Source: a bacterium
Lineage (GTDB): Bacteria > Patescibacteriota > Patescibacteriia > Patescibacteriales > GWC2-42-12
Direction: 5' to 3'
DNA: 64,000 nt
NCBI GenBank assembly: GCA_030650415.1
Contig: JAUSEG010000005.1
Location: 23,333 to 87,332, forward strand
The position numbers and the translations under genes were made by a program. How positions within the stretch are numbered: position 1 is the first letter of the stretch; each line of letters begins with the position of its first letter. Shown one piece after another: positions 4,551-57,477 of this stretch. Under the pieces are notes generated by a model, which worked only from the letters and a program-made list of their open reading frames with translations, did not search any database and had not been told where the DNA came from.

Positions 4551-4685
4551 TGTCATTGCGAGGAGCCTGTAATCAGGCGACGAAGCAATCTCTGGTCAGT
4601 TTATTTAAACAACTTTATTACTGCTCAATTTTTTAGCACTTTCTAACCAGAGATTGCTTCGTCGCTACTGCTCCTCGCAATGACA
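4551..4685. repeat. Type-1 mosaic palindromic element
   Basis: TGTCATTGCGAGGAGC...GCTCCTCGCAATGACA outer arms. Inner arms are GCGACGAAGCAATCTCTGGT / ACCAGAGATTGCTTCGTCGC. Confidence 0.85.
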
Positions 4686-6550: not shown

Positions 6551-9500
6551 TTAGTAAGATAACTTCGCGCCTATTACTTCAGAAACATTCAATAAGACAT
6601 TTGATACATCCGTACCGGTGCCATTATTGCCATTATAAACGAAACGGTAAGTCAGATCAGCAATCTTCGTCTGGACGAAGTCGCCGGACGCGTCTACGCC
6701 GCTAATATCGCCTTCAATGACGATAGTAACTTCGCCGTCCACATCCTCTGTGGTTCCAGATAATTGCGAGAAGGTAGAAGAGGCTGTTCCTGTACTACCA
6801 TCTTCTTGAACCGCGGTAGTCTTATTGCTGGAATCACCATCAATATAGACCTGGATATTATTCACGAAGACGCCGCTTGAGGTGGCAATGCTTAAGCCCA
6901 AGGTTACTAATCGCGCTTTTAGTTCAGTATTATCGCTGTTTCTGTTACTGCCGTTATTGAAGATGAATTTATACTTACCGATAATCTGATCATTGCCGTT
7001 AGATAGCGTTGTATTGGACATCGGATTAGTAATGGAGGTTAGGACTGAACCGTGAATAGTCGCGGTGGTAGAGGTGGCAACGCCCCACTCGGCGTATTCA
7101 CCGGCAGCCACACTGGCATCAGTATCTTCAACCAAAGTAATGTCATCGCCCAAATCTACGCCCACAGCGGTAACCGCGTCATCGGCCGATAGGCCGAGTT
7201 GAGTCAATTGAGTGCTGGAAGCTAAAGTATAGATTATGGTTTCCGCGTCATCGGCCGTAGCGGAAGGATCGCCTTCCACATTAATACCTCTAGCGGTTAC
7301 GCCAATGAAATATTCATGGACGTTATCCGCCGATAGCACTAAGTTCAAGTCGCTGAAATTGGCATCGCCGAGAGTGCTGACGCCTTTTGAAGCCACTAAG
7401 ACTTCATTCTTGTCATACAACTCAACGGATGCAATATCATCGGCTCTGGCTGTGCCCTGTTGGCCTAAGACTAAAGTCTTAACCTTAATCGGTTCATTAG
7501 CGGTGGTGAAAGTTAACTTGCCGAGATATTTATCTCCGGAAGTAATCTTACTGCCTGCTAAGAGGATCGTATTAGTATTAGACTTTAGATCCGTAACCGT
7601 CAGCTCAACTTTCAATGTACCGGCCGAAGCCAAAGTAAGGGTCCTGGAAAGAGTCGCGGCATTCTTTACGCTTTCCGCCACCGCGTTCGAGTCTTTATCC
7701 TGGGCGACTATGCTAGCCGCTACGCCATCCGCTGTAAGTCCGATAACTCCTGTAGGACTAAAGGTGGACGAGAAATCAGCTTTAACTTCTAAGGTCACGG
7801 TCTTACCGGCGGGAATTACTCTGTTAGTTGTGTCTAAAGAAGTAAAGTTGATATAACCAGCGGTTCCTGAAGCAGGTTCAACGATGCCACCGGCAACTGT
7901 CTTAACCAGCTTGTTGTCAACATAGAGCCGTAACTGGGAAATATTAGTATCGCTAAACGCGCTAGCGACAGTAGAAGTAGAGTGAATCTTAACCGAGGTT
8001 AAAGTAACCGCGGAAGACGCGCCCGCTTCTAAGCTGGCCGCGTAAACGACCACATCCTTAGCGCTCGGCACAATCGTCTTAGCTGTTAAGGCGGTTGTCT
8101 GCCAAGTTAAAGAGGCTGTTTTAACCGTAGCGATAGCGCTTGAAACTGATGTCGGGGTAATGCTGGATTGCAAGCTGGCGTCTGAATCATCGCCGCTAAT
8201 AGTAAAGCCGGTGCTCTTTAGAACAACCTGCAAAGTATCGCTATCAACGGCTGGATTGGTATCGTTCGTACCGGCTACATCTACTTTTATCTGATAAGTC
8301 TTGGTCACGCCCTTAACCAAACTGATTTCATCGGAATTGGTTAATTTGCAATAAGAGGCCGTTGTTGAACTGGCGATAGTTAAATCATAAGATGCGCCAG
8401 TGACCGTGTCTCTTAAGACCGCGTTATCAAGTTTAGTGCAAGATGGGTTTGTACCAGTGATATAAAAGCTATCTGCGCCAGCGCCTAACGCGGTAATGGT
8501 GGCATTTTCACCGGCTGAAAGAACTTTAACGGTAGCTAAAATCACGGCGTTATCGCCCGGCCTAACATCTTTAGACGGAGTAACGGTTTTATCCATATCA
8601 ATTGTAACATCACCGGCCGTTAAAGTAACGACAATGCCCTCGCTAACACCGTCTATATTCGCAAAATAGCTAGAACCAATTTCTATGCCATAACCATAAT
8701 CCTGGCCAGTGAAATATAAATCACCGGCTTCGTAAAAATACAAGTCAATGGTATTAGTGGTATTGCCAATGCCGATATCGCCATAAACTTCAACCGTGAT
8801 GGTGTCATTTTTAGCGATAACTTTATTGAAGCTGAAAGTAACGATCTTATCAACCAATTCGCCGCCCTTGACGACTTCATCGCCATCAATCACCACTCTC
8901 ATGTTGCCAACAATGCCGGCGGTATTGGTGCCGCCATTCTTCATGGCAAAGCCGGAGAAAATAACCGCTTCATTAGCCGCGGTTAAATCAAATTTGGCTA
9001 ATAAGACATTGTCTTCGCCGAAATCATTGGAGGTATCAGAAGTGCCAAGATTTGACATGGTAACCGTACCAATAGTTGAACTGGTAACTGCCTGAACATT
9101 ACCTCTAACCGGGAAAGAGCCGCTTACGGCCGCTCCATTAGTAGTAATGTCGCTAGCCGCGGCAATGCCTAAAGCAAAATTTCCCGATGTTTGGCCCGCA
9201 ACAATCGTGGCTTTGACCACTAAAGATTTAGTGGTTCCGGCCGCGACGACGATCGGTGTAGAAAAATTAAAGGTTGCTTCTTTATCGGAATTTATATTCT
9301 TGGCTGTTCCCACTTTGACGCCGTTATCATAGAAAGTAACGCTGTCAACATAAGTGGCCGTACCCAATTCAAAGGTTTTTAGCTTAATCGCACTAACGCT
9401 TACCGCGCCGTCGTTGGAAGCGGTTAAGTTAATCTTTAAGAACGAAGTCGGTGAACCGGCCGGGATAGTGGAGGCAGCCGCGGTGTCTGAAGCTAAGCTG

Positions 9501-10228
9501 ACGGTTAAGCCAGAGCCCGCGCCGATTGATCCGCCCGCGCCTGACGAAGTATCAGTTAGGGTGGCAACCGCGCCCGAGATGCTAGCGCCAACAACCGGTT
9601 TAGCGATCGTGGCGGTGATAACATCAGCCCATTTAAATCTGTTGGCTAAGAAAGCCGCTTCGGTAGCGATCTTTGAAGCTGTGGTATCAGCATTGATAAG
9701 ATAAACATCAGCTTCAGTGCCAAACTTCACTAAACTGCCCTGAGGATAAGAGGTCGCGCTGACTACGCTGGTAAGGGTAATGTAGTTGGTAAAGAAAGCG
9801 TCAGACACATCAATAATCCTCTTATTCCATTGTGATCCGAATAAAGTCGCGGCCGTCGCTTCATCAGGAACGCCCACTAAAGAGCCTCCGGCGACAACGG
9901 CGTAAACTTTCGGATTAGTAGTAATTTTAACTAATTTAGTACCCGGTCTAACGGTGACATTCTTACCCAGAGGATATGACTCTAACTCGCTTTGAGAAAT
10001 AGTCACAACGCTGGAGAAATCACTGTACCAGGAAAAATAAGTTGACTCATTAGGGAAAACATATCTCTTTCCGTCAGCGGCCAAGTAATAAACGGACGAA
10101 AGTCCGCTCATCTTGATTAAGTCACCGGCTGAAGCGTTGGCACTCACATTAGGAGCTACCACTACGCTCATTGATAAGACGGTAACGAAAATTACGCCTG
10201 CGGCAAAGATTTTCTTGAATCTTTCCAT
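6551..10228 (-). CDS. Very large secreted surface (S-layer-like/adhesin-like) protein
   Basis: Start moved to MERFKKIFAAGVIFVTVLSMSVVVAPNVSANA (signal peptide). About 1225 aa, rich in A/T/S/V/G and free of Cys. At least 5 divergent ~110-130-aa modules recur with the pattern ...V.LYD.....V......F.F.....I.AG.T....V.ADI. Confidence 0.7.
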   Translation of the reverse strand: MERFKKIFAAGVIFVTVLSMSVVVAPNVSANASAGDLIKMSGLSSVYYLAADGKRYVFPNESTYFSWYSDFSSVVTISQSELESYPLGKNVTVRPGTKLVKITTNPKVYAVVAGGSLVGVPDEATAATLFGSQWNKRIIDVSDAFFTNYITLTSVVSATSYPQGSLVKFGTEADVYLINADTTASKIATEAAFLANRFKWADVITATIAKPVVGASISGAVATLTDTSSGAGGSIGAGSGLTVSLASDTAAASTIPAGSPTSFLKINLTASNDGAVSVSAIKLKTFELGTATYVDSVTFYDNGVKVGTAKNINSDKEATFNFSTPIVVAAGTTKSLVVKATIVAGQTSGNFALGIAAASDITTNGAAVSGSFPVRGNVQAVTSSTIGTVTMSNLGTSDTSNDFGEDNVLLAKFDLTAANEAVIFSGFAMKNGGTNTAGIVGNMRVVIDGDEVVKGGELVDKIVTFSFNKVIAKNDTITVEVYGDIGIGNTTNTIDLYFYEAGDLYFTGQDYGYGIEIGSSYFANIDGVSEGIVVTLTAGDVTIDMDKTVTPSKDVRPGDNAVILATVKVLSAGENATITALGAGADSFYITGTNPSCTKLDNAVLRDTVTGASYDLTIASSTTASYCKLTNSDEISLVKGVTKTYQIKVDVAGTNDTNPAVDSDTLQVVLKSTGFTISGDDSDASLQSSITPTSVSSAIATVKTASLTWQTTALTAKTIVPSAKDVVVYAASLEAGASSAVTLTSVKIHSTSTVASAFSDTNISQLRLYVDNKLVKTVAGGIVEPASGTAGYINFTSLDTTNRVIPAGKTVTLEVKADFSSTFSPTGVIGLTADGVAASIVAQDKDSNAVAESVKNAATLSRTLTLASAGTLKVELTVTDLKSNTNTILLAGSKITSGDKYLGKLTFTTANEPIKVKTLVLGQQGTARADDIASVELYDKNEVLVASKGVSTLGDANFSDLNLVLSADNVHEYFIGVTARGINVEGDPSATADDAETIIYTLASSTQLTQLGLSADDAVTAVGVDLGDDITLVEDTDASVAAGEYAEWGVATSTTATIHGSVLTSITNPMSNTTLSNGNDQIIGKYKFIFNNGSNRNSDNTELKARLVTLGLSIATSSGVFVNNIQVYIDGDSSNKTTAVQEDGSTGTASSTFSQLSGTTEDVDGEVTIVIEGDISGVDASGDFVQTKIADLTYRFVYNGNNGTGTDVSNVLLNVSEVIGAKLSY

Positions 10229-10243
10229 AGATAAATTTTGTTT

Positions 10244-10290
10244 ACCCTGTGAAATCCCTACGGGATGCGTAGCATATTTCACAGGGTGAA
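10244..10290. repeat. Type-2 hairpin element in the leader of the surface-protein gene
   Basis: ACCCTGTGAAAT-CCCTACGGGATGCGTAGCAT-ATTTCACAGGGTGAA. It ends 15 nt upstream of the ATG at 10228. Confidence 0.75.
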
Positions 10291-11867: not shown

Positions 11868-12091
11868 TGTCATTGCGAGCCGCCCCTGTAATCTGGGCGG
11901 CGCGGTCATCGCTACGCGAGATCTGGCGTAGCCATGACAATCTCTGGTTCAATAGCACAAAACTTAACTATTTTTTTAATGCTCAACACCAATCTAAATT
12001 TATTTTAAAGTAGCATTTCTTAATTTCTTGTTCTTGCCAACTTACCAGAGATTGCTTCGTCTCCGCCAGCTGGCGGATCCTCGCAATGACA
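11868..12091. repeat. Type-1 mosaic palindromic element (long form)
   Basis: TGTCATTGCGAGCCGCCCCTGTAATC...CTCGCAATGACA. Contains GCTACGCGAGATCTGGCGTAGC, AATCTCTGGT/ACCAGAGATT and CCGCCAGCTGGCGG. Confidence 0.85.
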
Positions 12092-14227: not shown

Positions 14228-15016
14228 ATGAAAAAATTAATTAAATCAAAACTGTTTCTGCAGGTAATTGTCGCCTCCATGGTTGCCACGTTGGCCACGG
14301 CTGGAATTGTCGGCGCCGTTTCTACAATCGGAGCCAACATTAGTACTGCCGGAACTTTAAATGTAGATTCAGGCACTCTCTATGTCGGCACAACTGATCG
14401 GGTCGGCATCGGCACAACCACGCCATTCGCGAGCTTATCCATTAATAACATCAGCGGCGACAATGCCTTGGTTATCGGTTCGTCCACCGCCACCTGGCTA
14501 AAGGTTGACGCTTCCGGCTTATTGACGGTTGCCAAAGGCGCGACTTTCTCAGATACTCTGGCCGTCACCGGAGCCGCGACTCTTTCCAGCACTTTAGCAT
14601 CCGGCGCGCTTACAGTTACCGGAGCTGCTACTATTTCGACCACTTTAGGCGTAACCGGTGATCTTTCTTTTGTCAACGCTTCATCTACCGGCACAACCAA
14701 ACTTTCAGTAATTACCTCCGACACCGGATCAATTAGCTTTAGCAATGAAAACCTAACCACTACCGGCAATCTGGCTTTCGCCACGGCTTCTTCCACCGGC
14801 CAGGTAAAAGTAGATACTCTGGGCGTAGCTTCCACTACTCCTGCTAATGGATATCAATTAAGCGTTGGCAATGGGGCGTCAGCCAGCTCAACTGTCAGTA
14901 TGGGTAAATTCTGTATGTTTGCCGGACAGGAAGATGGAACAATGGTCTATATCAGATTAAGTTCTACGGCAGCTAATAATTCGCCGTTCGCCACCTCAAC
15001 CATTCCGTGTAATTAG
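14228..15016 (+). CDS. Secreted fibre-like protein (tail-fibre-like G/T/A/S repeats)
   Basis: Signal/TM segment at the N-terminus. VGIGTTTPFASLSI resembles the GIGT..P...L motif of bacterial tail-fibre-like proteins. Periodic LxVTGAATxSSTL repeats. C-terminal Cys pair. Confidence 0.55.
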   Translation: MKKLIKSKLFLQVIVASMVATLATAGIVGAVSTIGANISTAGTLNVDSGTLYVGTTDRVGIGTTTPFASLSINNISGDNALVIGSSTATWLKVDASGLLTVAKGATFSDTLAVTGAATLSSTLASGALTVTGAATISTTLGVTGDLSFVNASSTGTTKLSVITSDTGSISFSNENLTTTGNLAFATASSTGQVKVDTLGVASTTPANGYQLSVGNGASASSTVSMGKFCMFAGQEDGTMVYIRLSSTAANNSPFATSTIPCN

Positions 15017-15050
15017 TAATTTATAAAGCCAAATTAATTAATTAAACTCT

Positions 15051-16523
15051 ATGAAAAAAATTCTAGTGATAACTGTCTTGGCTTTATTCTTGGCTACTCT
15101 GTCGGTTCTGGCGGTGACAGACTCGGATTTCACGGCTGACGATAATGTTGCCGTCACCTTGAATCTTAACGGCGTTGCCGGTGCCACCGAAGCTACTTTA
15201 ATGATTAAAAGCGGCTCTGAAGCGCGCAGTTTGGTAATTAACAGCATCGGCACTCTTGATATAGTTAACGCCAGTAGTACCTCTTTTAAGCTCTATTCAA
15301 CCGATACTAACGCCGGAGCCATTAAAGTCGCGAGTTCCACTACGCTGGTTAGCTGTACCGACTTCGCGGATGCTACTTTAAGCAGTCCGGTTACCATCGC
15401 CTCAAGCACCATGTACATTTCCACTTCCACTATTACTCTGATTGACCTGGATAATGCCCTGACCTATAATGATTCTTGCGGCGCGGCTTCATGCGATGTT
15501 GGTTATAGTCCATCAGGATCAAACGCAGACGCGACTTGCGTTCGCAATACTGGCGGTTCTAACCCGCCCAGCGGAGGAAGTCCTAGTCCAGTTACTTGCA
15601 CATCCGTAGTTTATGATATCTGGCAGACCGCCTGCACCAGCGGCTGGCAATACCGCAACGTTACATCGCAAAGCCCATCCGGCTGTACTTTAACCACCGC
15701 CCAAGAGAATGACAAAAAGAAGTCATGTACTGCTGCTGCTTGCACCTCCGTAGTTTATACTGACTGGCAAACCGCCTGCACCAGCGGCTGGAGATACCGC
15801 ACCGTTACATCGCAAAGTCCGTCCGGCTGTGCCTTAACTACCGCCCAAGAGAATGACAAGAAAAAAGCCTGCGTCTCCCCCGCCACTCCGGCGACTCCGG
15901 CAACGCCTGCTACGCCAGCTCAAGCCGCCGACCAGATAAAGAATATCGTCGCTGAAGCCGCGACGATCGCCGGACGCAGTGTTGAATCGGTCTTAGCTGC
16001 TGTCGGCGCGATGCAAGACGCCAAAGCCGAAGCCGCGGCCGAAAAAAAATATACTAATAGTTTAGTCAGCGGTTTAAAAAACATCACAGCCGAAATTAAA
16101 TCAGCCATCACCAACTTCATAAATTACGGCACCCCGACCACCCTAAAATTAGGCGCGGGCGAAAGAGCCGGCGTAATTAGTTCTTATAGAGCCGCTTTCG
16201 GCAAAGTGCCGGCTACCGAAACTGAATGGTCTGATGCGATTAAAATCGCTAATGGCCGCTGGCCAACCGCCAGAAGCGCCGCCGCCGAAGCTCAAGCTAA
16301 AGTTGAATTTAAGAAAGTTTACAAGCGAACACCGAATATGAATCAAACTAATGACAACGCCGCGGTTACCGTAATTTCTTATGGCTTAAGGCCGGGCAAC
16401 AGAAATCTGAATAGCGAAAAAGCCGCCATTAAAAGCTTTAAAGCGATTTATGGCCACGCGCCAGTGTCAGCAATAGCCTGGGATATCGTACGCGCTATCG
16501 CCTACTCAGGAGCAACCAGATAA
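15051..16523 (+). CDS. Secreted protein with two tandem Cys-rich 44-aa repeats, a PATP linker and a conserved C-terminal domain of unknown function
   Basis: Signal peptide MKKILVITVLALFLATLSVLA. Repeats CTSVVY..WQTACTSGW.YR.VTSQSPSGC.LTTAQENDKKK.C occur twice (about 15598-15870). (PAT)4 linker. Confidence 0.6.
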   Translation: MKKILVITVLALFLATLSVLAVTDSDFTADDNVAVTLNLNGVAGATEATLMIKSGSEARSLVINSIGTLDIVNASSTSFKLYSTDTNAGAIKVASSTTLVSCTDFADATLSSPVTIASSTMYISTSTITLIDLDNALTYNDSCGAASCDVGYSPSGSNADATCVRNTGGSNPPSGGSPSPVTCTSVVYDIWQTACTSGWQYRNVTSQSPSGCTLTTAQENDKKKSCTAAACTSVVYTDWQTACTSGWRYRTVTSQSPSGCALTTAQENDKKKACVSPATPATPATPATPAQAADQIKNIVAEAATIAGRSVESVLAAVGAMQDAKAEAAAEKKYTNSLVSGLKNITAEIKSAITNFINYGTPTTLKLGAGERAGVISSYRAAFGKVPATETEWSDAIKIANGRWPTARSAAAEAQAKVEFKKVYKRTPNMNQTNDNAAVTVISYGLRPGNRNLNSEKAAIKSFKAIYGHAPVSAIAWDIVRAIAYSGATR

Positions 16524-23693: not shown

Positions 23694-23914
23694 TGTCATT
23701 GCGAGGAGCGAACACAGATCCCTCTCCGCCAACTGGCGGATCGGGACAAGCTTCGCAACCTCTTTGCGTTGTCATTGCGAGGAGCTTCGGCGACGAAGCA
23801 ATCTCACGAATGTCTATGCTCCATTAAATCTCGCCATTATTATATTATTATTTTTCTTCGCCGTTCGTGAGATTGCCGCGCTCTCCGCCAGCTGGCGGAT
23901 CGCTCGCAATGACA
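23694..23914. repeat. Two abutting type-1 mosaic palindromic elements
   Basis: Copies start at 23694 and 23770 (TGTCATTGCGAGGAGC twice). They contain CCGCCA(A/G)CTGGCGG twice and AGCAATCTCACG / CGTGAGATTGC, and end in CGCTCGCAATGACA. Confidence 0.85.
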
Positions 23915-29024: not shown

Positions 29025-29795
29025 TTAATTAAAACTATACTTAAAAAACTTATCAATAATTTCCCCCGCCTCCTGGCCTAATTTTTTACTTATTTTAATT
29101 TTTTGTAACTGTTGAAAATTACATTTAACGGCTAGTCTCAGTAATTTGATGCTATCATCGGTTATAACTAATTGATTAGCATCTTTAGGATTAAAGCACT
29201 TCGAGCAGACCAGGCCGCCTCTCGCCAAATCAAACCGATTTCTTCCCGGCAAAATTTTATTAACGCAACTAACGCAAACTGACAACTCCGGCTGATGACC
29301 TAATAGGGCTAAAAGCTTAAAGATAAATAATTGAGTCAGCATCGTCAAGCGGTAATCGCTATATAATTCTTTCTGGATTCCCCCCGCATTTTGCGGGGCG
29401 GGAATGACAGACTCCGGCCGCTCCAGCGTTTCTAAATAATTTTTCAATAATTCAAATATTTTTTCATCGGCCAGTCCGGGTTTAATAAGCTGATCTATGA
29501 TTTTTACCGCTCGTCCGGCTGGCGCTAATTTAGTCAAATCATTTTTTATATTGCTAAAACAATTTTCGTTTAAAGCCGCGCCCACATAATCATGCCGCCG
29601 GCCGCGCACCGCCATAATATTAGTTAAGCTCAAAGGCTCTAAATGGCCGGCCAGCTTTGATTTTATCTTCTTCGCTCCCCTGGCGGTTAATTCGAGTTTA
29701 CCAAACTCGCGCGAATAAACTACGACCCGGCTATCACATTCGGAAAAACTTTTACGGTTTAAAATTATGGTTTTAATATTATAAGTATCTTCCAT
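29025..29795 (-). CDS. recO: DNA repair protein RecO (with repeat-derived insertion)
   Basis: N-terminal OB-fold pattern and zinc motif CVSC...CSKC. A half palindromic element at 29373-29409 is translated as SVIPAPQNAGGIQ. Confidence 0.75.
   Translation of the reverse strand: MEDTYNIKTIILNRKSFSECDSRVVVYSREFGKLELTARGAKKIKSKLAGHLEPLSLTNIMAVRGRRHDYVGAALNENCFSNIKNDLTKLAPAGRAVKIIDQLIKPGLADEKIFELLKNYLETLERPESVIPAPQNAGGIQKELYSDYRLTMLTQLFIFKLLALLGHQPELSVCVSCVNKILPGRNRFDLARGGLVCSKCFNPKDANQLVITDDSIKLLRLAVKCNFQQLQKIKISKKLGQEAGEIIDKFFKYSFN
29373..29409. repeat. Half type-1 element inside recO
   Basis: CTGGATTCCCCCCGCATTTTGCGGGGCGGGAATGACA, which is the right-hand terminus module of the family. Confidence 0.7.
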
Positions 29796-29805
29796 AAAAT
29801 CCTTT

Positions 29806-29893
29806 TGTCATTCCCGAAGCCGTAGGCTGTCGGGAATCCAGGGGCGCGCGGCATAAACATATTTTCTGGATTCCCGCCTGCGCGGGAATGACA
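29806..29893. repeat. Type-1 mosaic palindromic element
   Basis: TGTCATTCCCGAAGCC...GGGAATCCAGG...CTGGATTCCCGCCTGCGCGGGAATGACA. Confidence 0.85.
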
Positions 29894-35304: not shown

Positions 35305-35447
35305 TGTCATTGCGAGGAATGGAGCGAAGCGTAATGACGAAGCAATCTCACGCATATCTATTTATTACCAGCTGTGCAAATTACATTAATTTTCTTGCTT
35401 AGATGTTCGTGAGATTGCTTCGCTCCTTTCAGTCGCTCGCAATGACA
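35305..35447. repeat. Type-1 mosaic palindromic element
   Basis: TGTCATTGCGAGG...GACGAAGCAATCTCACG...CGTGAGATTGCTTCG...CGCTCGCAATGACA, between rplO and secY. Confidence 0.85.
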
Positions 35448-43862: not shown

Positions 43863-44396
43863 TTACACGCCTTCGTAAATTTTAATAGCTTGATCTTTTG
43901 GTAAAGTTACTATGGCCTTTTTCCAGTCTTTTCTTTTGCCGCTGATTTTTCCGTAACGAGCGTTCTTGCCCATCATTTTAATAACATTCACACTAGTTGG
44001 CTTAATGCCATAAACCTCTTTAATGGCTTTAGCGATTTCTATTTTATTGGCATCGCCGGCCACGGCAAAAACATATTTATTTAAAGCGCCTAGATTGCTG
44101 ACTTTTTCCGTAACTAACGGTTTAACCAAGACTTTATAGGCATTGCCATAAGTCGTTCGCGCCTGACCCTTCTTAACCTCCTTGCCCTTACCTGCTCCGA
44201 GCCTGGTCGAGGAGGCGGTCGAAGCAGTACCATATAAATCCTTCATGCTCTTAGTTTCCGGCTCTGCCTTAACAGGAGTTTTTCCAGCGCTAACCGGCGT
44301 CGGCTTGGCCACGGCTTTTTTCTGATCACCTGCCCCGAGCTTAATCGAGGGGTCAGTTTTTTTTCCAAATATTGACATACAATAATTAATTTTCAA
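43863..44396 (-). CDS. rplW: 50S ribosomal protein L23 with ~80-aa N-terminal extension
   Basis: C-terminal YKVLVKPLVTEKVSNL...KIEIAKAIKEVYGIKP. Start uncertain (the ATG at 44378 is also possible). Confidence 0.85.
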   Translation of the reverse strand: MKINYCMSIFGKKTDPSIKLGAGDQKKAVAKPTPVSAGKTPVKAEPETKSMKDLYGTASTASSTRLGAGKGKEVKKGQARTTYGNAYKVLVKPLVTEKVSNLGALNKYVFAVAGDANKIEIAKAIKEVYGIKPTSVNVIKMMGKNARYGKISGKRKDWKKAIVTLPKDQAIKIYEGV

Positions 44397-44525
44397 TTTT
44401 CAATTTACAAATTTTCAATCAATTACCAATGAATTAATGAATTAATTTTCAAATAAAAATATAATTAATTGAAAATTCAATCATTGAAAATTCATTGAAA
44501 ATTGATAATTGTAAATTAAAAATTA
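44384..44525. repeat. AT-rich long hairpin built from TTTCAAT/ATTGAAA words
   Basis: AATTTTCAATTTTCAATTTACAA... vs ...TTGAAAATTGATAATTGTAAATTAAAAATT, in the rplD-rplW spacer. Confidence 0.55.
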
Positions 44526-45275
44526 TTATTTATACCTTTCTTCTAGCTTCTCAACAACGGTTCTTGCAATAATTAAATTCTTATATTTCAACAGGTCTAC
44601 TATATTTATATTATTCATGTTAATCAGCAAAACGCCAGGTAAGTTTTTTGCCGAATTGGTTAATTTCTCATCAGTCTTTTCGACGATAATCAAGATACTG
44701 CGTTTTTTCGCTGATTTACCGGTTTTAGTTTTCTTTGGCTTGGCTTCAACTTGTCCGGTTAAATTCATGGCCTGCTTAACTTCAGCTGAACCGGAATTCA
44801 ATGGAGTAAAAATTTTATTTTCTAAATTAGCTAAAATCTGATTAAAAAATTTGGTTTTAAATTCCGTTATGGAAAATTTATCTAAAACGACTAAATGATC
44901 GCTGGCCAGTTTATCGGATAAAACCATAAGCATGGCGCCCTGCTTCATCTTTTTATTTATCCGCATTTTAAAATTCCGGTCGTTTCTCGGACCGAAGGTT
45001 ACGCCGCCACCCTTCCAAATCGGTGATCGGCTTGAACCGTGGCGCGCTCGGCCCGTGCCTTTTTGCGCCCAAGGTTTTTTACCGCCGCCCCTGACTTCGC
45101 TTCTGGTCTTAGTATGAGCGATAACTTTTCTCTCGTTGGCCATTTGCGTAACAACCGCCTGGTGCACTAGAGCTTCATTAACTTTCACGCCAAAAACCTT
45201 TGAAGAAAGTTCCATCTCTCCGGCAGCTTCCGCGTCTTGGTTGTAGATTTTTATTTTAAGGCTCATATTTTGCAT
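44526..45275 (-). CDS. rplD: 50S ribosomal protein L4
   Basis: GGGKKPWAQKGTGRARHGSSRSPIWKGGGVTFGP. The first track ATG (45281) lies in the repeat terminus, so the start is set to the next ATG. The exact start is uncertain. Confidence 0.88.
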   Translation of the reverse strand: MQNMSLKIKIYNQDAEAAGEMELSSKVFGVKVNEALVHQAVVTQMANERKVIAHTKTRSEVRGGGKKPWAQKGTGRARHGSSRSPIWKGGGVTFGPRNDRNFKMRINKKMKQGAMLMVLSDKLASDHLVVLDKFSITEFKTKFFNQILANLENKIFTPLNSGSAEVKQAMNLTGQVEAKPKKTKTGKSAKKRSILIIVEKTDEKLTNSAKNLPGVLLINMNNINIVDLLKYKNLIIARTVVEKLEERYK

Positions 45276-45392
45276 TGTCATTCCCGCGAAAGCGGGAATC
45301 CAGGAGGAAGCAGTATAAACATTGTTAATAATTTACCGTGTTTGTGCCTCTGCCTCCTGGATTCCCGACAGCCTGCGGCTTCGGGAATGACA
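45276..45392. repeat. Type-1 mosaic palindromic element (downstream flank of the inserted ORF)
   Basis: TGTCATTCCCGCGAAAGCGGGAATCCAGGAGGAAGCAGTATAAAC...TTTGTGCCTCTGCCTCCTGGATTCCCG...CGGGAATGACA. Confidence 0.85.
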
Positions 45393-45435
45393 AGATAAAA
45401 AATTGTTCGTTTTAATATTACTAATCACTAATCTT

Positions 45436-45471
45436 TAAAAAATGGGGGTATTAGTAAATTGCGCTACCCCC
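45436..45471 (-). terminator. Candidate intrinsic terminator after the inserted 104-aa ORF
   Basis: Minus strand reads GGGGGTA-14 nt-TACCCCC followed by ATTTTTT, 9 nt after the stop. Confidence 0.5.
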
Positions 45472-45479
45472 GATCGGCC

Positions 45480-45794
45480 TTAGCCGATGGTCACGCAAGG
45501 AACGCCGCTACTTTCTGACTTAACCTTACCCTCCTTCTTCGACAATCTCTTGATGAAATTGGCAACCGCCTTGGCTATGCGTATTTGTTCCGCCTTGGCG
45601 CGGTATTCATCAGACTTACGCGCCCTTATTCTCGGATCACCGTAGGTCACCATCTCTGAATCTTCTTCATAGGCCACGGCCGCGGCTTCCAATTCTCTCA
45701 ACTCTTGCTTCAGCCTCCTGCAACGACCGGATAACCTAATGGCCGTTTGCTGCAACCACGCCTTGTCAATAACTACCATCGTTTGTGTTTTCAT
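45480..45794 (-). CDS. Hypothetical 104-aa protein inserted between rplC and rplD
   Basis: An ATG at 45794 is preceded by ACGGAGATCAAAC (GGAG Shine-Dalgarno). Visibly more G+C-rich than its neighbours. Predicted helical and charged (RELEAAAVAYEED..RAKAEQIRIAKAVANFIKRL). No motif recognised. Confidence 0.55.
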   Translation of the reverse strand: MKTQTMVVIDKAWLQQTAIRLSGRCRRLKQELRELEAAAVAYEEDSEMVTYGDPRIRARKSDEYRAKAEQIRIAKAVANFIKRLSKKEGKVKSESSGVPCVTIG

Positions 45795-45838
45795 GTTTGA
45801 TCTCCGTGTTTTTGTTTCTGTTGTTTTATTGTTTGATT

Positions 45839-46026
45839 TGTCATTCCCGCGAAAGCACTCTGTTTTCTTTCTCTGCGCCGAGGTCGGCACCGAGGAGCAA
45901 TCCAGGAGGAAGCAGTACAAACGATCCTTATCGTTTACTATATTTGTGCCTCTGCCTCCTGGATTCTCATGGCTACGCCAGATCTCGCGTAGCGATGACC
46001 GACAGGCTTCGCCTTCGGGAATGACA
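45839..46026. repeat. Type-1 mosaic palindromic element (upstream flank of the inserted ORF)
   Basis: Same orientation and same inner core (ATCCAGGAGGAAGCAGTACAAAC...TTTGTGCCTCTGCCTCCTGGATT) as 45276-45392, plus a GCTACGCCAGATCTCGCGTAGC module. Confidence 0.85.
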
Positions 46027-46034
46027 AAATAATA

Positions 46035-46850
46035 TTATTTCACTTTTTCTTCTTTCTTTTCCACTTTAACCGCTTCAACTTTTTTCTCCTCTTTAACTGA
46101 CTCGGTAACTTTAACTGCTTCAATCGGTTTTTCGGTCTTTACTTCTGCCACCGTCTCCGCTTTCGGCTGGGCTTGTCCTGAGCTTGCCGAAGGGGCAATT
46201 TTTAAATTTCCGTCTCCGTAAACTAAAACCACGCTATTTCTCGCGCCCGGAACCGCGCCGCTAATATATAAAATATTATTTTCTTTATCAACTTGCGCGA
46301 TTTTTAAATTGGCTGTCGTCACGCGCTCATCACCCATTCGGCCGGGCATCCTTTTATTCTTAAAAACGTGCTGAGGGCCGCCGGCGCCAATCGCTCCCGA
46401 AGTTCTAACCTGATCTTTTGTGCCGTGAGTGGTATTATGGCCATGAAAGCCATGTCTTTTCACGCTGCCTTGAAAACCCTTGCCTTTTGAAGTGCCGGTA
46501 ACTTTTATAACATCGCCGACTTCAAAGGTGCCGGCATCAACTATATCGCCTATTTTTAAATCTTTAACTTCTTCTCTAAACTCGCGATAATATCTTAAAT
46601 TTTTTCCAAAGCCCGGTTTTCCGCCCCTAGCCGAAATCTTAGCTTTCTTTAAATGGCCGAGCTGGGGTTTATTGATATTTTTTTCTTTTCTTTCCGAAAA
46701 CCCAAGCTGAACCGCCGCGTAGCCGTCCGAATTGATGCTTTTTAACTGGACAACCGGACATGGTCCGGCCTGAACTTTCGTTACGGCTACCAGTTTTTCG
46801 CCTTGCCAAATCTGGGTCATTTCAATTTTTTTTCCTATAATAAATTTCAT
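46035..46850 (-). CDS. rplC: 50S ribosomal protein L3 with C-terminal extension
   Basis: GKGFQGSVKRHGFHGHNTTHGT, GRMGDERVT and synteny. Confidence 0.92.
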   Translation of the reverse strand: MKFIIGKKIEMTQIWQGEKLVAVTKVQAGPCPVVQLKSINSDGYAAVQLGFSERKEKNINKPQLGHLKKAKISARGGKPGFGKNLRYYREFREEVKDLKIGDIVDAGTFEVGDVIKVTGTSKGKGFQGSVKRHGFHGHNTTHGTKDQVRTSGAIGAGGPQHVFKNKRMPGRMGDERVTTANLKIAQVDKENNILYISGAVPGARNSVVLVYGDGNLKIAPSASSGQAQPKAETVAEVKTEKPIEAVKVTESVKEEKKVEAVKVEKKEEKVK

Positions 46851-46875: not shown

Positions 46876-46955
46876 TGTCATTCCCGCGCAGGCGGGAATC
46901 CAAAAACGGATTTTTTACTTCTCACTCCTGGATTCCCGCCTTCGCGGGAATGACA
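46876..46955. repeat. Type-1 mosaic palindromic element
   Basis: TGTCATTCCCGCGCAGGCGGGAATCCA...CTGGATTCCCGCCTTCGCGGGAATGACA, in the 356-nt rpsJ-rplC spacer. Confidence 0.85.
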
Positions 46956-47206
46956 AGAGAAAAATATTTAATGGTTATTCAAAGCTCTAAATATAAAAAA
47001 ACCGGTCTTCAACAAACCAGTCCAAAACCGCTTTAACACGGTGGCTATTACAAATTATTTTCCAAAAAAGGAATTTAATTTTGACTCTTGGTTTGATTGA
47101 ATTTTACCTCGCTCTAAATATTAACTTTTATTCAAACACTTTCCCTAAAGGAGTTGTCTAAACAATCATTAATATAATATATAAAAATACTAACTAATAT
47201 ATTCTA

Positions 47207-47578
47207 TTACATTTTTATCTCGATGTCAACCCCGGCCGGTAGGCCAAGATTAGTCAAAGATTCTATAGTCTTAGCTGTCGGTTCAATGATATCCACCAAT
47301 CTTTTATGAATTCTGATCTCGTATTGATCCCTTGAATCCTTATGCACAAAGGTTGAACTGTTTACCGTATACTTTTTCTTTTCAATCGGCAACGGTATCG
47401 GTCCGTAAATCTGGGCGCCGGTCCTTTCGGCCGTGTCGATAATCGTCTTAGTGGATTGATCAATAATTTTATGATCAAAAGCTTTAATTTTAATGCGGAT
47501 TCTCTGTTTAGAATCTTCATTGACTCTTACTTCTGATTTGTCGTCTTTAACGGATTTTTTGTCTTTAACTTCAGTCAT
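47207..47578 (-). CDS. rpsJ: 30S ribosomal protein S10 with ~22-aa N-terminal extension
   Basis: [18 protein letters not shown]...HKRLVDII. Confidence 0.92.
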
Positions 47579-47670: not shown

Positions 47671-47946
47671 TTAAGCGTGGTCCAGCTCCGAAAAAGCTTC
47701 CGCTCCGTTATGTAGTGGAAGAGAATAAAGCTCCGCTACTTTTTTTGCAAGCGAAATTGTCTCACCCGTCTGATTGGAGTAATCTTCTCTTTCGTTGCTA
47801 AATTGAGACTTTTTACTTAGCTGGTTACGGTCAAGCGCATAAGTTTTCAAAGCCCGGATAATAATATCCGCTTCCTCCATAGTGAGTTTTAATTCTCCTT
47901 TTTCTCTCTCAATCGGTGCTTTTTCTCCAAATTTTTGTTCTGGCAT
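47671..47946 (-). CDS. Hypothetical protein between tuf and rpsJ
   Basis: The track ORF starts at a TTG. The first ATG (47946) gives MPEQKFGEK.... No motif recognised. Confidence 0.35.
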   Translation of the reverse strand: MPEQKFGEKAPIEREKGELKLTMEEADIIIRALKTYALDRNQLSKKSQFSNEREDYSNQTGETISLAKKVAELYSLPLHNGAEAFSELDHA

Positions 47947-48038
47947 AAATTTATTTAACCGCAAATCTGCAAATTCACTACGAATAAAACAAACAGTATT
48001 CGTAATATTCGTAGCTGATTTGTAGATTTGTGGAATGT

Positions 48039-49367: not shown

Positions 49368-49949
49368 TTATACCCCCGCAGTAAGACGTTCCTTCATAAT
49401 TATCAAACTAGTCACTAATAGCTCTTCACTATTTACTAAATCAGTATTAAATATAATTTCCACATAATGTGGGGAGAGTTCCTTCCTTGTACAAAACAAT
49501 TCTCCTTCTCTGTAGGTCTGACTTGTTAATAATAAATTGTTGACTTGGGTAGTGTACCTAGAACTATTTATTTGAAAAATTCTACTATTTTTATCAATAT
49601 TAATTTCATAAACTTTCTCACTCAAAATTAACTTATCTTTTAAAAAAACTTCACCATTATTTTTAACAAAACTTCTTTGATACTCACCATTTTCTGCTCC
49701 ATCCAATTGCTTGAAACCAATGTCCTTAATCTTGCCCCAAGCTTCAAAAATACGACTGTCGCTTAATTTAATTTTTGTGCGACCCGCTGAGATTTGACTT
49801 CCATAAAAATACAAAATTTTTGCCCAATGGCGACTTTCTGGCTGATGCTTATTAAATAGAGACTTATCCTTGACGCGCCCAGAAATCTGTACGGTTAAAG
49901 AAATGCCAGCAATAATAACAATAATAATAAATGCAATTAATCCTGCCAT
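49368..49949 (-). CDS. Hypothetical membrane-anchored protein (very AT-rich)
   Basis: N-terminal TM segment MAGLIAFIIIVIIAGISLTV. The rest is N/K/I-rich with no recognised motif. Confidence 0.45.
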   Translation of the reverse strand: MAGLIAFIIIVIIAGISLTVQISGRVKDKSLFNKHQPESRHWAKILYFYGSQISAGRTKIKLSDSRIFEAWGKIKDIGFKQLDGAENGEYQRSFVKNNGEVFLKDKLILSEKVYEINIDKNSRIFQINSSRYTTQVNNLLLTSQTYREGELFCTRKELSPHYVEIIFNTDLVNSEELLVTSLIIMKERLTAGV

Positions 49950-49986
49950 AAAATATACGAATAGAAAACACTCACAATTTGTGTCT

Positions 49987-50403
49987 TTAAAACGCCAAGT
50001 CTTCCAGGTATTGCCGGTCTTCTTCTATTATTTCCTCGGCGTTGATTTTTCTCTTTGAAGGAATCGACCAGCTCTTATTGAATTTCCTGATCATTTTCTC
50101 CCGCGCCTCTTCATGCTCTTCGCGGCCTTCCTTCTTCGGCAGTTCGGCCAAATGATCCAGGTCCGTGTCCAGGTCGTTATCTAAATTCTGCTCGCTTTTC
50201 CAAATTGCAATATCACGATTTATTTTATCAAGTAATTCATCTTCTGTCAATCCGCGGACTTCGCTCTTGCCTAAAACCAGATTTTCATAATCTTTTAGCG
50301 CCAAAACCACAAAAGTATTGTCTGGTTTAGAGCTATCAAAAATAATCAGCCGATCGCCGGTTTTCTTGACTAAATTAATGGCTTTTTGCAATTGATCATG
50401 CAT
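49987..50403 (-). CDS. Hypothetical acidic protein; N-terminus weakly Phd/YefM-antitoxin-like
   Basis: VKKTGDRLIIFDSSKPDNTFVVLALKDYENLV resembles the beta-beta-alpha core of YefM-type antitoxins. The C-terminus is acidic and charged. The resemblance is by eye only. Confidence 0.4.
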   Translation of the reverse strand: MHDQLQKAINLVKKTGDRLIIFDSSKPDNTFVVLALKDYENLVLGKSEVRGLTEDELLDKINRDIAIWKSEQNLDNDLDTDLDHLAELPKKEGREEHEEAREKMIRKFNKSWSIPSKRKINAEEIIEEDRQYLEDLAF

Positions 50404-50477: not shown

Positions 50478-50664
50478 TGTCATTGCGAGGAATCCTATTT
50501 CATTTTGTCATCCCCGCGCAGGCGGGGATCCAGGTTAAAAACGAAAAAATTTCGGTTTACTGAAATAATGGCAAAACAAAATGTCCGTGTCGCTGAACTC
50601 TGGATTCCGGCTCGCCTTCGGCTTAAAGGCCGGAATGACAAAAAGACGGTCGCTCGCAATGACA
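50478..50664. repeat. Nested type-1 elements (one copy inside another)
   Basis: Outer TGTCATTGCGAGG...GTCGCTCGCAATGACA. Inner TGTCATCCCCGCGCAGGCGGGGATCCAGG...CTGGATTCCGGC...GGCCGGAATGACA. Confidence 0.85.
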
Positions 50665-52798: not shown

Positions 52799-52862
52799 TG
52801 TCATTCCCGCGCAGGCGGGAATCCATTTCCTCTGTCATTGCGGCCTCCGAGCCGCAATCCAG
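52799..52862. repeat. Two left-hand type-1 termini in tandem
   Basis: TGTCATTCCCGCGCAGGCGGGAATCCA followed by TGTCATTGCGGCCTCCGAGCCGCAATCCAG. Confidence 0.75.
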
Positions 52863-52908: not shown

Positions 52909-53958
52909 TCAATTTGTAAATTTGAATGTTGCTAAGATTTGCTTTTGTAAATCATTATCTTCATCAATATAATATAAATCAGCTGGGCATGAACCAAAAC
53001 TAATTACAAGGGTTTTATCGCTAACTGCAGTCTTAACTATTGTCGCCAAGCAACCAGCATCGCCCATCTTATACTTATAGCCAGCATTATTACCGACTTT
53101 TATTGTTTCAAATTTTTCAATTTTTCCATACATATCTTCAATATTATTTGGATCTAATTTTTTATCTGTTAAAGTTAAAGATAATGTGCCACGTTTACTA
53201 TTAAAATAAACATAATTTTCTTCTTTTCCAGCAATACTAAAAACTGTACCGGGGTATTTAAATGAAACCCCGCTCAATTTACTATACTGCAACCATTGGC
53301 TATCTACGACTTTTGGTTTTACCCAATCTTCGTTGATTTTAAAAGTTTTCAGTATCTCCTGTGATATTTTATCATCCTTGAGAAAATTAATTAAAAATAC
53401 TGTTCCTAGTTTATTGGCAGTAAAAATAAAAGTTCTTTCTTTTTCTATTTGCCATCCCCCAGTCTGCCATTGGAAACTTCCTATTATATTAAAAGTAAAA
53501 GCATCTCTACCATCAACTTTTGTAGTAAGGAGGTTTGAAATAAATTTATTTTTAATATTTGGATTATTGTCATCTTTGTTAATCTGCCAAATTTCCTGTG
53601 CATATTCATCTATAGGTTGCTTTACTGCTTCCACGGTTAATACTTCAAAAGAGGAACGATTAACAGGAGTTTTATATTGATAGCCATATTTTTCATTATA
53701 ATAAATTTGCCAATCGTTTGTATCAACGACTTCGGGCTCTTCGGTCAGGTTTTTAGTAATAGCTTGATTATTTTTCTCAAAATTATCGTTAATTTTCTGC
53801 AAATTTTTTACTGCCTGATTTTCAATCTGCTTGCTTTGCTGAATTTGCCCTTGCCATTTTATTGTGCCAAAAGCAATCACGCCAATTACTAAAACAGCTA
53901 CTAGAATAGCTATTAATGCAAAACCTCTTTGTTTAAAAATTTCTTTGTTCGTTTTCAT
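52909..53958 (-). CDS. Hypothetical exported protein with pilin-like N-terminus
   Basis: KQRGFALIAILVAVLVIGVIAF resembles a prepilin leader (G/F cleavage site plus hydrophobic helix) but lacks Glu at +5. The remainder is N/K-rich with 2 Cys near the C-terminus. Confidence 0.45.
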   Translation of the reverse strand: MKTNKEIFKQRGFALIAILVAVLVIGVIAFGTIKWQGQIQQSKQIENQAVKNLQKINDNFEKNNQAITKNLTEEPEVVDTNDWQIYYNEKYGYQYKTPVNRSSFEVLTVEAVKQPIDEYAQEIWQINKDDNNPNIKNKFISNLLTTKVDGRDAFTFNIIGSFQWQTGGWQIEKERTFIFTANKLGTVFLINFLKDDKISQEILKTFKINEDWVKPKVVDSQWLQYSKLSGVSFKYPGTVFSIAGKEENYVYFNSKRGTLSLTLTDKKLDPNNIEDMYGKIEKFETIKVGNNAGYKYKMGDAGCLATIVKTAVSDKTLVISFGSCPADLYYIDEDNDLQKQILATFKFTN

Positions 53959-53972
53959 ACCTACTTCTCCCC

Positions 53973-54000
53973 CTGGATTCCCGCCTGCGCGGGAATGACA
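53973..54000. repeat. Right-hand half of a type-1 element
   Basis: CTGGATTCCCGCCTGCGCGGGAATGACA. Confidence 0.75.
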
Positions 54001-55856: not shown

Positions 55857-55997
55857 TGTCATTGCGAGCGACTGTCTTTTTTTGTCATTCCGGCATCCGC
55901 CAGCTGGCGGAGAGCCTGCCTGCTGGCAGGCGAAGCCGGAATCCATGATTGTGTACTCTGGCCAAATTTCTGGATCCCCGCCTTCGCGGGGATGACA
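55857..55997. repeat. Nested type-1 elements
   Basis: TGTCATTGCGAGCG, then TGTCATTCCGGCATCCGCCAGCTGGCGG...CTGCCTGCTGGCAGG...GCCGGAATCCA...CTGGATCCCCGCCTTCGCGGGGATGACA. Confidence 0.85.
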
Positions 55998-57250: not shown

Positions 57251-57477
57251 TGTCATTGCGAGCCGCCCCTGTAATCAGGGCGAACGCGGGTCTCTCGCTA
57301 TCGCTCGGGATAAACTTCGCAATCTCTGGTTAGCAAGAAAAACGGGGGGAAAAAAATGCTTAATTAACAAAATAAATTTTGTTTTAAAAAAATTTACACT
57401 AGGCTGGTAAAGCGCTTTTAACCAGAGATTGCCACGCTCCCCAGCCCCAAGCTGGGGCTGGGTCGCTCGCAATGACA
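57251..57477. repeat. Type-1 mosaic palindromic element (long form)
   Basis: TGTCATTGCGAGCCGCCCCTGTAATC (same left end as 11868)...AATCTCTGGTT...AACCAGAGATT...CCCCAGCCCCAAGCTGGGGCTGGG...CGCTCGCAATGACA. Confidence 0.85.

Follow-up and report, generated by a model that had tools for sequence, protein, structure and literature searches.

A putative orphan small-protein gene and two REPIN-type repeats between rplC and rplD in a Patescibacteria ribosomal gene cluster

Repetitive extragenic palindromic (REP) sequences and their doublets, the REPINs, are short elements which, in the account of Bertels and Rainey, are reportedly mobilised by REP-associated tyrosine transposases (RAYTs). Within operons, the REP sequences and bacterial interspersed mosaic elements (BIMEs) of E. 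coli act in mRNA 3'-end protection, partial termination and translation effects near the stop codon. Morons, described in phages by Hendrix and colleagues, are extra genes that carry their own expression signals and lie between genes adjacent in relatives. Among neisserial repeats, the most common REP/REPIN 21-mer of Neisseria meningitidis, ATTCCCGCGCAGGCGGGAATC, is present in 241 copies and is mobilised by a Group 2 RAYT (bioRxiv 10.1101/2021.07.10.451892), and the dRS3 unit, a 20-bp ATTCCC(N8)GGGAAT, has been proposed in its identical copies as a site of integration or deletion, e.g. at pilC1 (PMC3898611). Likenesses to all of these are found in the spacer between rplC and rplD in a 64-kb stretch of a Falkowbacteria-like Patescibacteria metagenome-assembled genome (contig JAUSEG010000005.1, positions 23,333 to 87,332; this whole stretch is called the window), the minus strand of which is a str/S10/spc ribosomal gene cluster. 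A 104-codon open reading frame (ORF104) lies there between two palindromic repeats, elements A and B, an arrangement that the first-pass annotation had taken for a composite cassette. The same genome holds NCBI protein MDO8667621.1 (locus tag Q7K35_00800). The spacer is probably a lineage-restricted, fast-evolving small-protein gene together with two REPIN-type selfish copies, the look of a bracketed cassette being secondary.

The rplC–rplD insert and the coding signal of ORF104

In the window 768 bp separate rplC from rplD, as against 4–11 nt in the closest relatives (L053, L057, L059 and L061; 4–7 nt in the last three), so that the earlier claim of an insert between normally adjacent genes stands in the junction comparison. 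Of the relatives with sequence spanning the junction, L053 is the closest (87% L3 identity in the 212 conserved residues) and has an empty site reading TAA-ttattatat-ATG; rplC and rplD are adjacent in most of ~49 further relatives, allowing for long L3 tails; the longer gaps of L010 and L025, considered as inserts, were rejected as merely such tails. By these alignments the rplC–rplD DNA of the window reads as an insertion relative to related genomes, and its limits against the L053 empty site coincide with the outer ends of A and B.

A homologous insert is found in L054, a Joint Genome Institute metagenome contig with 93% (tuf) and ~85% (L3) protein identity to the window. Its rplC–rplD gap of 787 bp holds a leader with ACGGAGATCnAAAnATGAAA, two small ORFs (ORF71, then ORF83 with the Shine-Dalgarno (SD) sequence AAGGAG), a hairpin with a U-run, a 50-nt spacer and a REPIN that is ~90% identical to B and ends 9 nt ahead of rplD. 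No repeat lies between rplC and ORF71, i.e. element A has no counterpart there. Since the ORF insert occurs in L054 without A, the ORF was most likely not delivered by the A/B pair. In the direction of transcription the window spacer consists of element A, an A-rich leader with the SD, ORF104, a stem-loop with U-run, an AT-rich spacer and element B; the coordinates first assigned to both elements, the ORF, the SD and the hairpin were all correct.

46035..46850, minus strand: rplC, ribosomal protein L3 with a K/E-rich C-terminal tail, the upstream neighbour (ORF list, tblastn to 51 related loci)
45839..46026, no strand: element A, a rearranged REPIN-type palindrome with outer REP ends TTGTCATTCCCG/CGGGAATGACAA, a B-like core and extra DNA in both arms
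45795..45838, minus strand: A-rich leader of ORF104 with a GGAG SD inside; the same ACGGAGATCnAAAnATGAAA arrangement precedes ORF71 in L054
45480..45794, minus strand: ORF104, 104 codons, orphan basic protein with a predicted two-helix hairpin (ORF list, composition, AlphaFold2 (AF2) model)
45437..45471, minus strand: stem-loop GGGGGTA/TACCCCC (45471-45444), then A+T6 down to 45437 as the U-run
45393..45436, minus strand: AT-rich spacer, part of a 50-nt tract (~45441-45392) reaching from the U-run to REPIN B
45276..45392, no strand: element B, an intact REPIN-type doublet whose 68-nt core joins a short REP module, ATTCCCGCGAAAGCGGGAAT, to a long one
44526..45266, minus strand: rplD, ribosomal protein L4, the downstream neighbour

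Element A begins 8 nt past the rplC stop and element B ends 9 nt ahead of the rplD start, the latter being the ATG at 45266 as set by alignment with L054 and L053 (an ATG at 45281, inside the repeat, was rejected). PF00297 is present in homologues of the window rplC.

An assembly artefact, in which a misjoin at the repeats put unrelated DNA between rplC and rplD, is barely credible. The insert is bounded by repeats of the kind that break short-read assemblies, its ORF is atypical in G+C, and Logan contig L052, an independent assembly of the window's own organism, breaks off within each of the two repeats that flank rplC; yet L052 reproduces the rplC-to-A junction, L054 shows the same architecture contiguous with rplC in an independent metagenome of another project, and the junction leading from the spacer through REPIN B into rplD is 92% conserved.

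In L014, from another Parcubacteria lineage, an opposite-strand 149-aa membrane-protein ORF (4916-5365), unrelated to ORF104, lies between rplC and rplD, and the junction has thus been invaded more than once.

The composition of ORF104 sets it apart from its surroundings. Its G+C is 0.50 and its third-position G+C (GC3) 0.59, compared with a mean of 0.42 (sd 0.057, maximum 0.497) in 45 long window genes, and just 0.14% of in-frame 105-codon windows reach the same GC3; the impression of a clearly G+C-richer ORF, formed by eye at first, is thereby upheld by composition and codon profiles. The two L054 ORFs have GC3 values of 0.63 and 0.53, host genes 0.42–0.50. The insert ORF is compositionally foreign to its host. 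The first-pass annotation had regarded conservation of the ORF and its flanks at this site across distant Candidate Phyla Radiation lineages, with native composition, as speaking against its proposal. This is borne out in part: the insert occurs in one related lineage, with a G+C that is still non-native.

Several signals point to translation of this frame. A GGAG SD (45805-45802) stands 7 nt ahead of the ATG, the codon positions are ordered GC3 > GC1 > GC2, and the codon log-odds amount to +0.19 per codon and are positive in frame 0 alone (host genes 0.37 +/- 0.09, minimum 0.06). L054 keeps two SD-preceded, small, G+C-rich ORFs open over DNA that blastn cannot align to the window, and a residual protein similarity to ORF104 is detected in shuffling tests for both ORF83 (p = 0.0003-0.003) and ORF71 (p = 0.001-0.006). 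The three proteins have in common an N-terminus M[KN]xQ[ST]xV[VI], a C-terminal helix [AG]VxxFIxx[LV] and a G as the last residue.

Other results weigh against a gene. Shuffling the 446-nt interior yields an ATG ORF as long as ORF104 in 2% of cases, which makes its length alone weak coding evidence; the NCBI annotation gives a shorter, 73-aa version starting at an internal TTG; and BLASTP of ORF104 against the L054 ORFs yields E = 0.32 or no alignment. The shorter start and the shuffles, together with the lack of any fold or family match for this strict orphan (below), would suit a non-coding stretch, either nested-repeat debris or a structured RNA, and structured RNAs typically show as G+C-rich intergenic DNA in A+T-rich genomes. 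Such an origin is nevertheless unlikely. The RNA fold z-score of the ORF body is only -1.6, and Rfam, at the gathering threshold and at E <= 5, returned only miRNA-like hairpin noise on the repeats, whereas the SD is good, the position-specific composition and the log-odds support the ORF104 frame alone, and the open frames of L054 share their termini with it across non-alignable DNA. On balance, these sequence signals favour ORF104 as a real, weakly constrained gene; until expression is seen, it is as a gene an ordinary orphan.

The predicted protein agrees with its first description as helical, charged and free of recognised motifs: it is basic (pI 9.8), and the single-sequence AF2 model (pLDDT 68) consists of helices H11-47 and H54-88. 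A Foldseek comparison of this model with the PDB retrieved generic helical hairpins only (best E = 0.17). Sequence comparison gave a best E of 0.058 in Pfam and 0.2 in PHROG, nothing in NCBIfam, and in PADLOC only a coiled-coil stretch of JetC at 16 bits. A word-seeded search of 5.8 billion clusters found no relative beyond ORF104, ORF83 and ORF71 themselves, a profile built from these three matched only the same three sequences, and an exhaustive phmmer search of 1.84 billion representatives (~15 billion proteins) returned the self match only. Protein searches of IMG/VR, GenBank phages and PLSDB plasmids produced no relative, nor did the 79 viral loci that carry a REP 28-mer (see below), and no contig was on record for the exact sequence of either ORF104 or its 73-aa version. 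On these searches ORF104 is a strict orphan, outside any described family or fold.

Elements A and B among REP/REPIN repeats

Both elements are bounded by TTGTCATTCCCG...CGGGAATGACAA, and their end modules are TGTC-ATTCCCGC-loop-GCGGGAAT-CCAG hairpins. As had been noticed at first, they are direct repeats with a core of their own: its 68 nt are 84% identical between A and B and have no further occurrence in the window. The predicted fold of A reaches -85 kcal/mol (z -7.0) and that of B -58 kcal/mol (z -7.4), and their long modules differ by a compensatory stem change, AGCC/GGCT in B versus AGGC/GCCT in A, as read from alignments. The modules belong to a larger population. The motif TGTCATTSCSR occurs 32 times in the window against 0.09 expected, is intergenic in 29 of the 32 cases though ~79% of the window is coding, and is met almost always in +/- pairs, i.e. 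as inverted doublets. Stem types CCCGC/GCGGG, CCGGC/GCCGG, GCGG/CCGC and GCGAG coexist, with the frame TGTCATT...AATCC invariant. One further member of the family lies close to the insert:

46876..46955, no strand: third REPIN of the same family, in the rpsJ–rplC spacer (fold z -10.4)

This third REPIN has an orthologue in L061 (5 differences over 82 nt, by eye) and is missing in L054. The neisserial 21-mer ATTCCCGCGCAGGCGGGAATC is found within it at 46880 and also at 29885 and 52803, and the dRS3 pattern fits both ATTCCCGCGAAAGCGGGAAT in B and ATTCCCGCGCAGGCGGGAAT at 46880.

A and B are accordingly to be seen, as far as their sequences go, as REPIN-type doublets, a known kind of non-autonomous element, and they are ordinary members of a REP/REPIN population filling many intergenic spacers. 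With described REPINs the family shares short hairpins with a conserved flank, inverted doublets around a short spacer, an extragenic position and a high over-representation. Orthologous copies persist between lineages (B in the window and L054, the 46876 element in the window and L061), and B and the 46876 element fold as one long hairpin over a spacer of less than ~130 bp. The 21-mer matches the N. meningitidis REPIN master sequence letter for letter. Unlike described REPINs, those of the window reside in a host of the Patescibacteria (Candidate Phyla Radiation, CPR) with ~41% G+C, several stem subfamilies stand side by side, no RAYT gene is seen in 64 kb, and element A is both wider than the usual spacing and disrupted internally. 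Like the REP sequences and BIMEs of E. coli, A and B are palindromic repeats in intercistronic spacers of a highly expressed operon; they differ in sequence family.

Among 63 related and auxiliary loci the REP family is carried only by the L054 and L061 lineages and by the window organism (L052), and the copies of L054 and L061 occupy partly different spacers of the same operon. The library of papers searched contains nothing that connects REPINs or RAYTs to Patescibacteria. REPIN-type elements are thus documented in a Patescibacteria (CPR) genome, packed into spacers of the cell's most conserved operon. Outside this group the exact 28-mer TGTCATTCCCGCG[AC]AGGCGGGAATCCAG occurs in 79 IMG/VR stretches (L064-L142) with a G+C of 0.42-0.71, and REPIN-like matches in PLSDB (H1-H14) fall on Azospirillum, Cupriavidus, Neisseria, Photobacterium, Sphingopyxis and Halioglobus replicons. 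These matches across replicons indicate a REP unit common to distant phyla, which sits oddly with the claim that REPIN-RAYT inheritance is strictly vertical.

By analogy with Neisseria and E. coli, the population would be mobilised in trans by a RAYT (Y1/HUH) encoded elsewhere; in REPIN systems the cognate gene is single-copy and as a rule has REPs on either side. It counts against this picture that no Pfam match to Y1_Tnp or a RAYT was obtained in the window, where 30 of ~45 long ORFs were scanned, the rest being mostly housekeeping genes, and small ORFs were inspected by eye; nor was any transposase or integrase found in the 64 kb by the Pfam scans or, for small ORFs, by eye.

Element A, at 188 bp, exceeds the usual REPIN length on account of two nested insertions:

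45967..45998, no strand: 32-nt palindrome TCATCGCTACGCGAGATCTGGCGTAGCCATGA in the rplC-facing arm of A
45857..45898, no strand: 42-nt insertion or rearrangement in the ORF-facing arm of A, replacing the 3' half of the REP hairpin

The palindrome is missing from B and from the L054 copy of B, and has a 100% identical second copy at 11906-11937; no other copy of the 42-nt insertion was found. Both copies of TCATCGCTACGCGAGATCTGGCGTAGCCATGA (11906-11937 and 45967-45998) are nested in a larger REP-type element; they may represent a mini-repeat family of their own.

In a three-way alignment A and the window B agree at five arm positions against the L054 B, and A agrees with the L054 B at a few loop positions. 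The flanking repeats are accordingly sister copies, and element A is most likely a later local copy of B. The core divergence between A and B (16%), which is not below that between the window and L054 copies of B (12%), speaks against such a recent origin. The simplest history is that the ORF, hairpin, spacer and B came first and that A was copied from B in the window lineage and then disrupted; A may instead have been lost in L054, and either way an ORF insert exists without A.

The possibility that A and B are the ends of one transposable unit that brought the ORF, e.g. by RAYT/IS200-like single-strand 'peel and paste' between direct hairpins, must be weighed against these results. The two are direct repeats with a private core, the inserted DNA starts and stops at their outer ends relative to L053, the ORF is foreign in G+C, and the insert is patchy within a shallow clade. 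Even so, this composite cassette, as first proposed, is improbable. In L054 the homologous ORF insert is accompanied by B alone, and A has derived states in common with the window B and is internally disrupted. Of the further cassettes that the first-pass annotation had suggested seeking in the genome and its relatives, none was found: no other copy of the ORF or its flanks came to light in the window, the ~15 billion proteins or the viral, phage and plasmid sets searched. The window has no transposase, and there is no target-site duplication, the flanks TATTATTT / TGCAAAAT not being duplicated; this last is a weak test, as IS200/IS605-type movement would leave none. Integration of Campbell type by way of a resident repeat was considered as well; A, altered in both arms, gives no diagnosis for or against it.

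Two further systems invite comparison. A promoterless small ORF with an SD, set between ~120-bp imperfect palindromes of the same orientation, recalls integron attC cassettes (e.g. the VCRs of Vibrio). The attC reading was rejected, as the ends read TTGTCAT.../...ATGACAA (TTGTCATTCCCG / CGGGAATGACAA) and lack RYYYAAC / GTTRRRY core sites; also unlike an integron, the ORFs scanned contain no integrase domain, and the repeats occur singly in many spacers without ORFs. The neisserial intergenic mosaic elements (NIMEs) offer a second likeness, in that a dRS3-type hairpin repeat brackets a non-core gene missing at the site in relatives. In Neisseria, variable genes are flanked by arrays of dRS3, which come with RS elements and provide attachment sites to the Nf-phage recombinase. 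Unlike NIMEs, the locus shows no RS-type arrays, Nf-phage or IS110-type recombinase (Pfam scans of window ORFs only, with no aimed search), and the relative L054 has the gene with a single flanking repeat.

Other REP copies of the window were also recorded. A second REP subfamily, with TGTCATTGCGAG ends, forms inverted intergenic doublets at 4551-4685, 11868-12091, 23694-23914, 35305-35447, 50478-50664, 55857-55996 and 57251-57477 and is sometimes nested with the CCCGC/CCGGC type, e.g. at 50478-50664. A single REP module (29369-29409) lies inside the recO frame (29025-29795), between the Pfam matches RecO_N and RecO_C, and may represent an in-frame repeat insertion in a protein gene. Between rpsG and fusA, a 349-aa ORF (52909-53958; weak prepilin-type N-terminus, very low G+C with GC3 0.23) lies between two single REP modules in inverted orientation, whose 28-nt ends are identical (52799-52826, 53973-54000); the upstream module provides GGGGGAG directly before the ATG. 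This is a second non-ribosomal gene bounded by the REP family in the same operon.

The conserved spacer before rplD and the history of the insert

The 3' side of the insert contrasts with its ORF. Between the last codons of the ORF and the rplD ATG, a block of ~230 nt, window and L054 are 92% identical, and within it the 50-nt tract between U-run and REPIN is identical at 49/50 positions. No other copy of this tract exists in the window or in 62 loci, and a metagenome scan with the conserved spacer recovered the L054 contig alone. Four-fold site identity between window and L054 is 0.46-0.54 for tuf, rplC, rplD and rplW (0.79 for rpsJ, which has 28 sites only), and the 5' side of the insert is conserved to ~63%. 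The stem and U-run are kept in L054 (GGGGGT...GCCCCC) with a different loop sequence.

The stem-loop itself comprises a 7-bp stem with 5 G-C pairs, a 14-nt loop and a following AUUUUUU (fold z-score -2.0). Where the first-pass annotation gave ORF104 its own SD and terminator, the SD holds, GGAG being found 7 nt before the ATG, and so does a conserved hairpin with U-run; as a terminator it is atypical, its loop having 14 nt compared with 3-8 nt in intrinsic terminators, and a consensus terminator scan leaves it unflagged. It is best described as a candidate weak terminator, attenuator or 3'-end protector.

How the insert came to be distributed as it is bears directly on the favoured reading. 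It is patchy among four near-equidistant lineages, the window and L054 being occupied and L053 and L061 empty. Two points weigh against a lineage-restricted gene diverging in place. In the L3 tree the window pairs with L053, whereas L054 falls beside L061, at 85-87% identity throughout and without resolution. The tree thus does not establish one gain in a common ancestor of window and L054, and exchange between lineages or a pair of precise losses may have taken place instead. Furthermore, constraint explains only loosely a 230-nt block conserved at 92-98% beside an ORF that cannot be aligned at the DNA level. Both would be accommodated if the SD/start region and the 230-nt 3' block travelled recently between co-occurring Patescibacteria, with the ORF cargo swapped by recombination: the block is 92-98% identical although neutral positions in the genes on either side are saturated, no alignment is obtained between the ORF bodies, and L063 (1-2300), from a sample related to that of L054 (3202-5593), is 100% identical to it over 950 nt, comprising the 3' part of ORF71, ORF83, the hairpin, the spacer, the REPIN and the first 300 nt of rplD, before dropping abruptly to ~75% inside rplD. 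The contig L063 might be chimeric through misassembly, or a recombinant that arose naturally and carries the insert. Recent exchange of this kind is decidedly unlikely all the same. Its 5' side is conserved only at the ~63% noted above, other operon spacers with functional RNA also lie far above four-fold sites, so that the block is explicable by constraint, the drop in L063 may come from chimeric assembly, the residual ORF homology fits divergence in place, and no copy was met in any mobile-element collection searched.

Under the favoured reading of a small-protein gene accompanied by selfish repeats, copy B with the hairpin and the 50-nt spacer would be old and conserved and would form the rplD 5' untranslated region (UTR). 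Copy A would have arisen from B afterwards, in the window lineage only, settling in the gap from rplC to the ORF leader before it received its two nested insertions. Folding of B would bring the AT-rich spacer next to the rplD start, and the repeat may thereby be tolerated or even used within the 5' UTR.

More far-reaching proposals can be built on the same block and must be held doubtful. Hairpin, spacer and REPIN might have been domesticated to regulate rplD from its 5' side, as an attenuator with a looped-out leader, behind a hypervariable small-protein locus in the S10 operon of a few lineages; or ORF, hairpin and REPIN might together be an undescribed REP-associated mobile unit, site-specific at rplC–rplD, with cargo exchanged between co-occurring lineages.

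In the next spacer of the operon, between rplD and rplW (44385-44530), an AT-rich imperfect palindrome of ~135 nt is built of TTTTCAAT-like units (z -6.0) and differs from the REPINs that L054 and L061 have in the same spacer.

The leader upstream of rplC, probable expression of the insert and other features

The spacer between rpsJ and rplC contains a promoter-like region that bears on the expression of ORF104:

46999..47229, minus strand: promoter-like TTGACA-17-TAGAAT, structured leader and terminator-like hairpin, upstream of rplC

The sigma-70-like TTGACA-17-TAGAAT lies at 47229-47201 and is followed by a leader of ~190 nt and then by a terminator-like hairpin (47023-46999) just upstream of rplC. 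The leader is conserved in 13 related lineages, including L053, L054, L059, L061, L001 and L057, and its 22-bp, three-part hairpin (47175-47118) is paired in 95% of cells of the comparison. Covariation is pronounced: 14 of the 30 pairs are changed on both sides, a value reached in 0/500 shuffles, and slid controls give <= 5 pairs. Rfam contains no family that matches. The element is a candidate for a new leader or attenuator RNA of ribosomal-protein genes in Patescibacteria, and probably the more novel object of the region.

The promoter and leader upstream of rplC are the probable source of an ORF104 transcript, and ORF104 itself is likeliest a moron-like hitchhiker expressed from the rplC promoter. 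It would have entered as foreign, G+C-richer DNA, to sit moron-like between genes adjacent in relatives, and would share the rplC transcript, with a GGAG site of its own for translation. The resemblance to phage morons extends to the small size, the deviant G+C, the own ribosome-binding site, the terminal hairpin with U-run, the position between genes that abut in relatives, and dispensability as judged by the empty sites. Unlike phage morons, it resides in a cellular ribosomal-protein operon, has no own promoter that could be detected, and has no viral homologues.

The first-pass annotation had seen in a terminator at this position a break in the transcription of the operon. The stem-loop and U-run would rather cause partial termination or attenuation, or protect the 3' end, with read-through into rplD. 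Such read-through is suggested by the fact that rplD and later genes have no detectable promoter, neither a consensus scan nor inspection by eye having revealed a sigma-70-like promoter in the conserved spacer; it counts against this argument that it draws only on a missing recognisable promoter, and CPR promoters are poorly known. If so, a translationally coupled rplC–rplD pair can tolerate a 750-bp insert with an orphan gene and a terminator-like hairpin, and the locus becomes a concrete case for asking how the stoichiometry of downstream ribosomal proteins is kept.

Elsewhere in the cluster, small and medium ORFs without a Pfam match lie between tuf and rpsJ (47671-47964) and between fusA and tuf (49368-50403), and Pfam-less ORFs occupy the same positions in L057 and L061; should they prove homologous, the str operon would contain genes specific to this clade. 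Long ORFs in 6551-10282 and 14228-16523, likewise without a Pfam match, have an odd codon-position composition, in that a 1243-aa ORF shows GC1 = GC2 = GC3 = 0.46 and two plus-strand ORFs show GC2 > GC1 at a G+C of ~0.50; these may be unusual genes or spurious ORFs.

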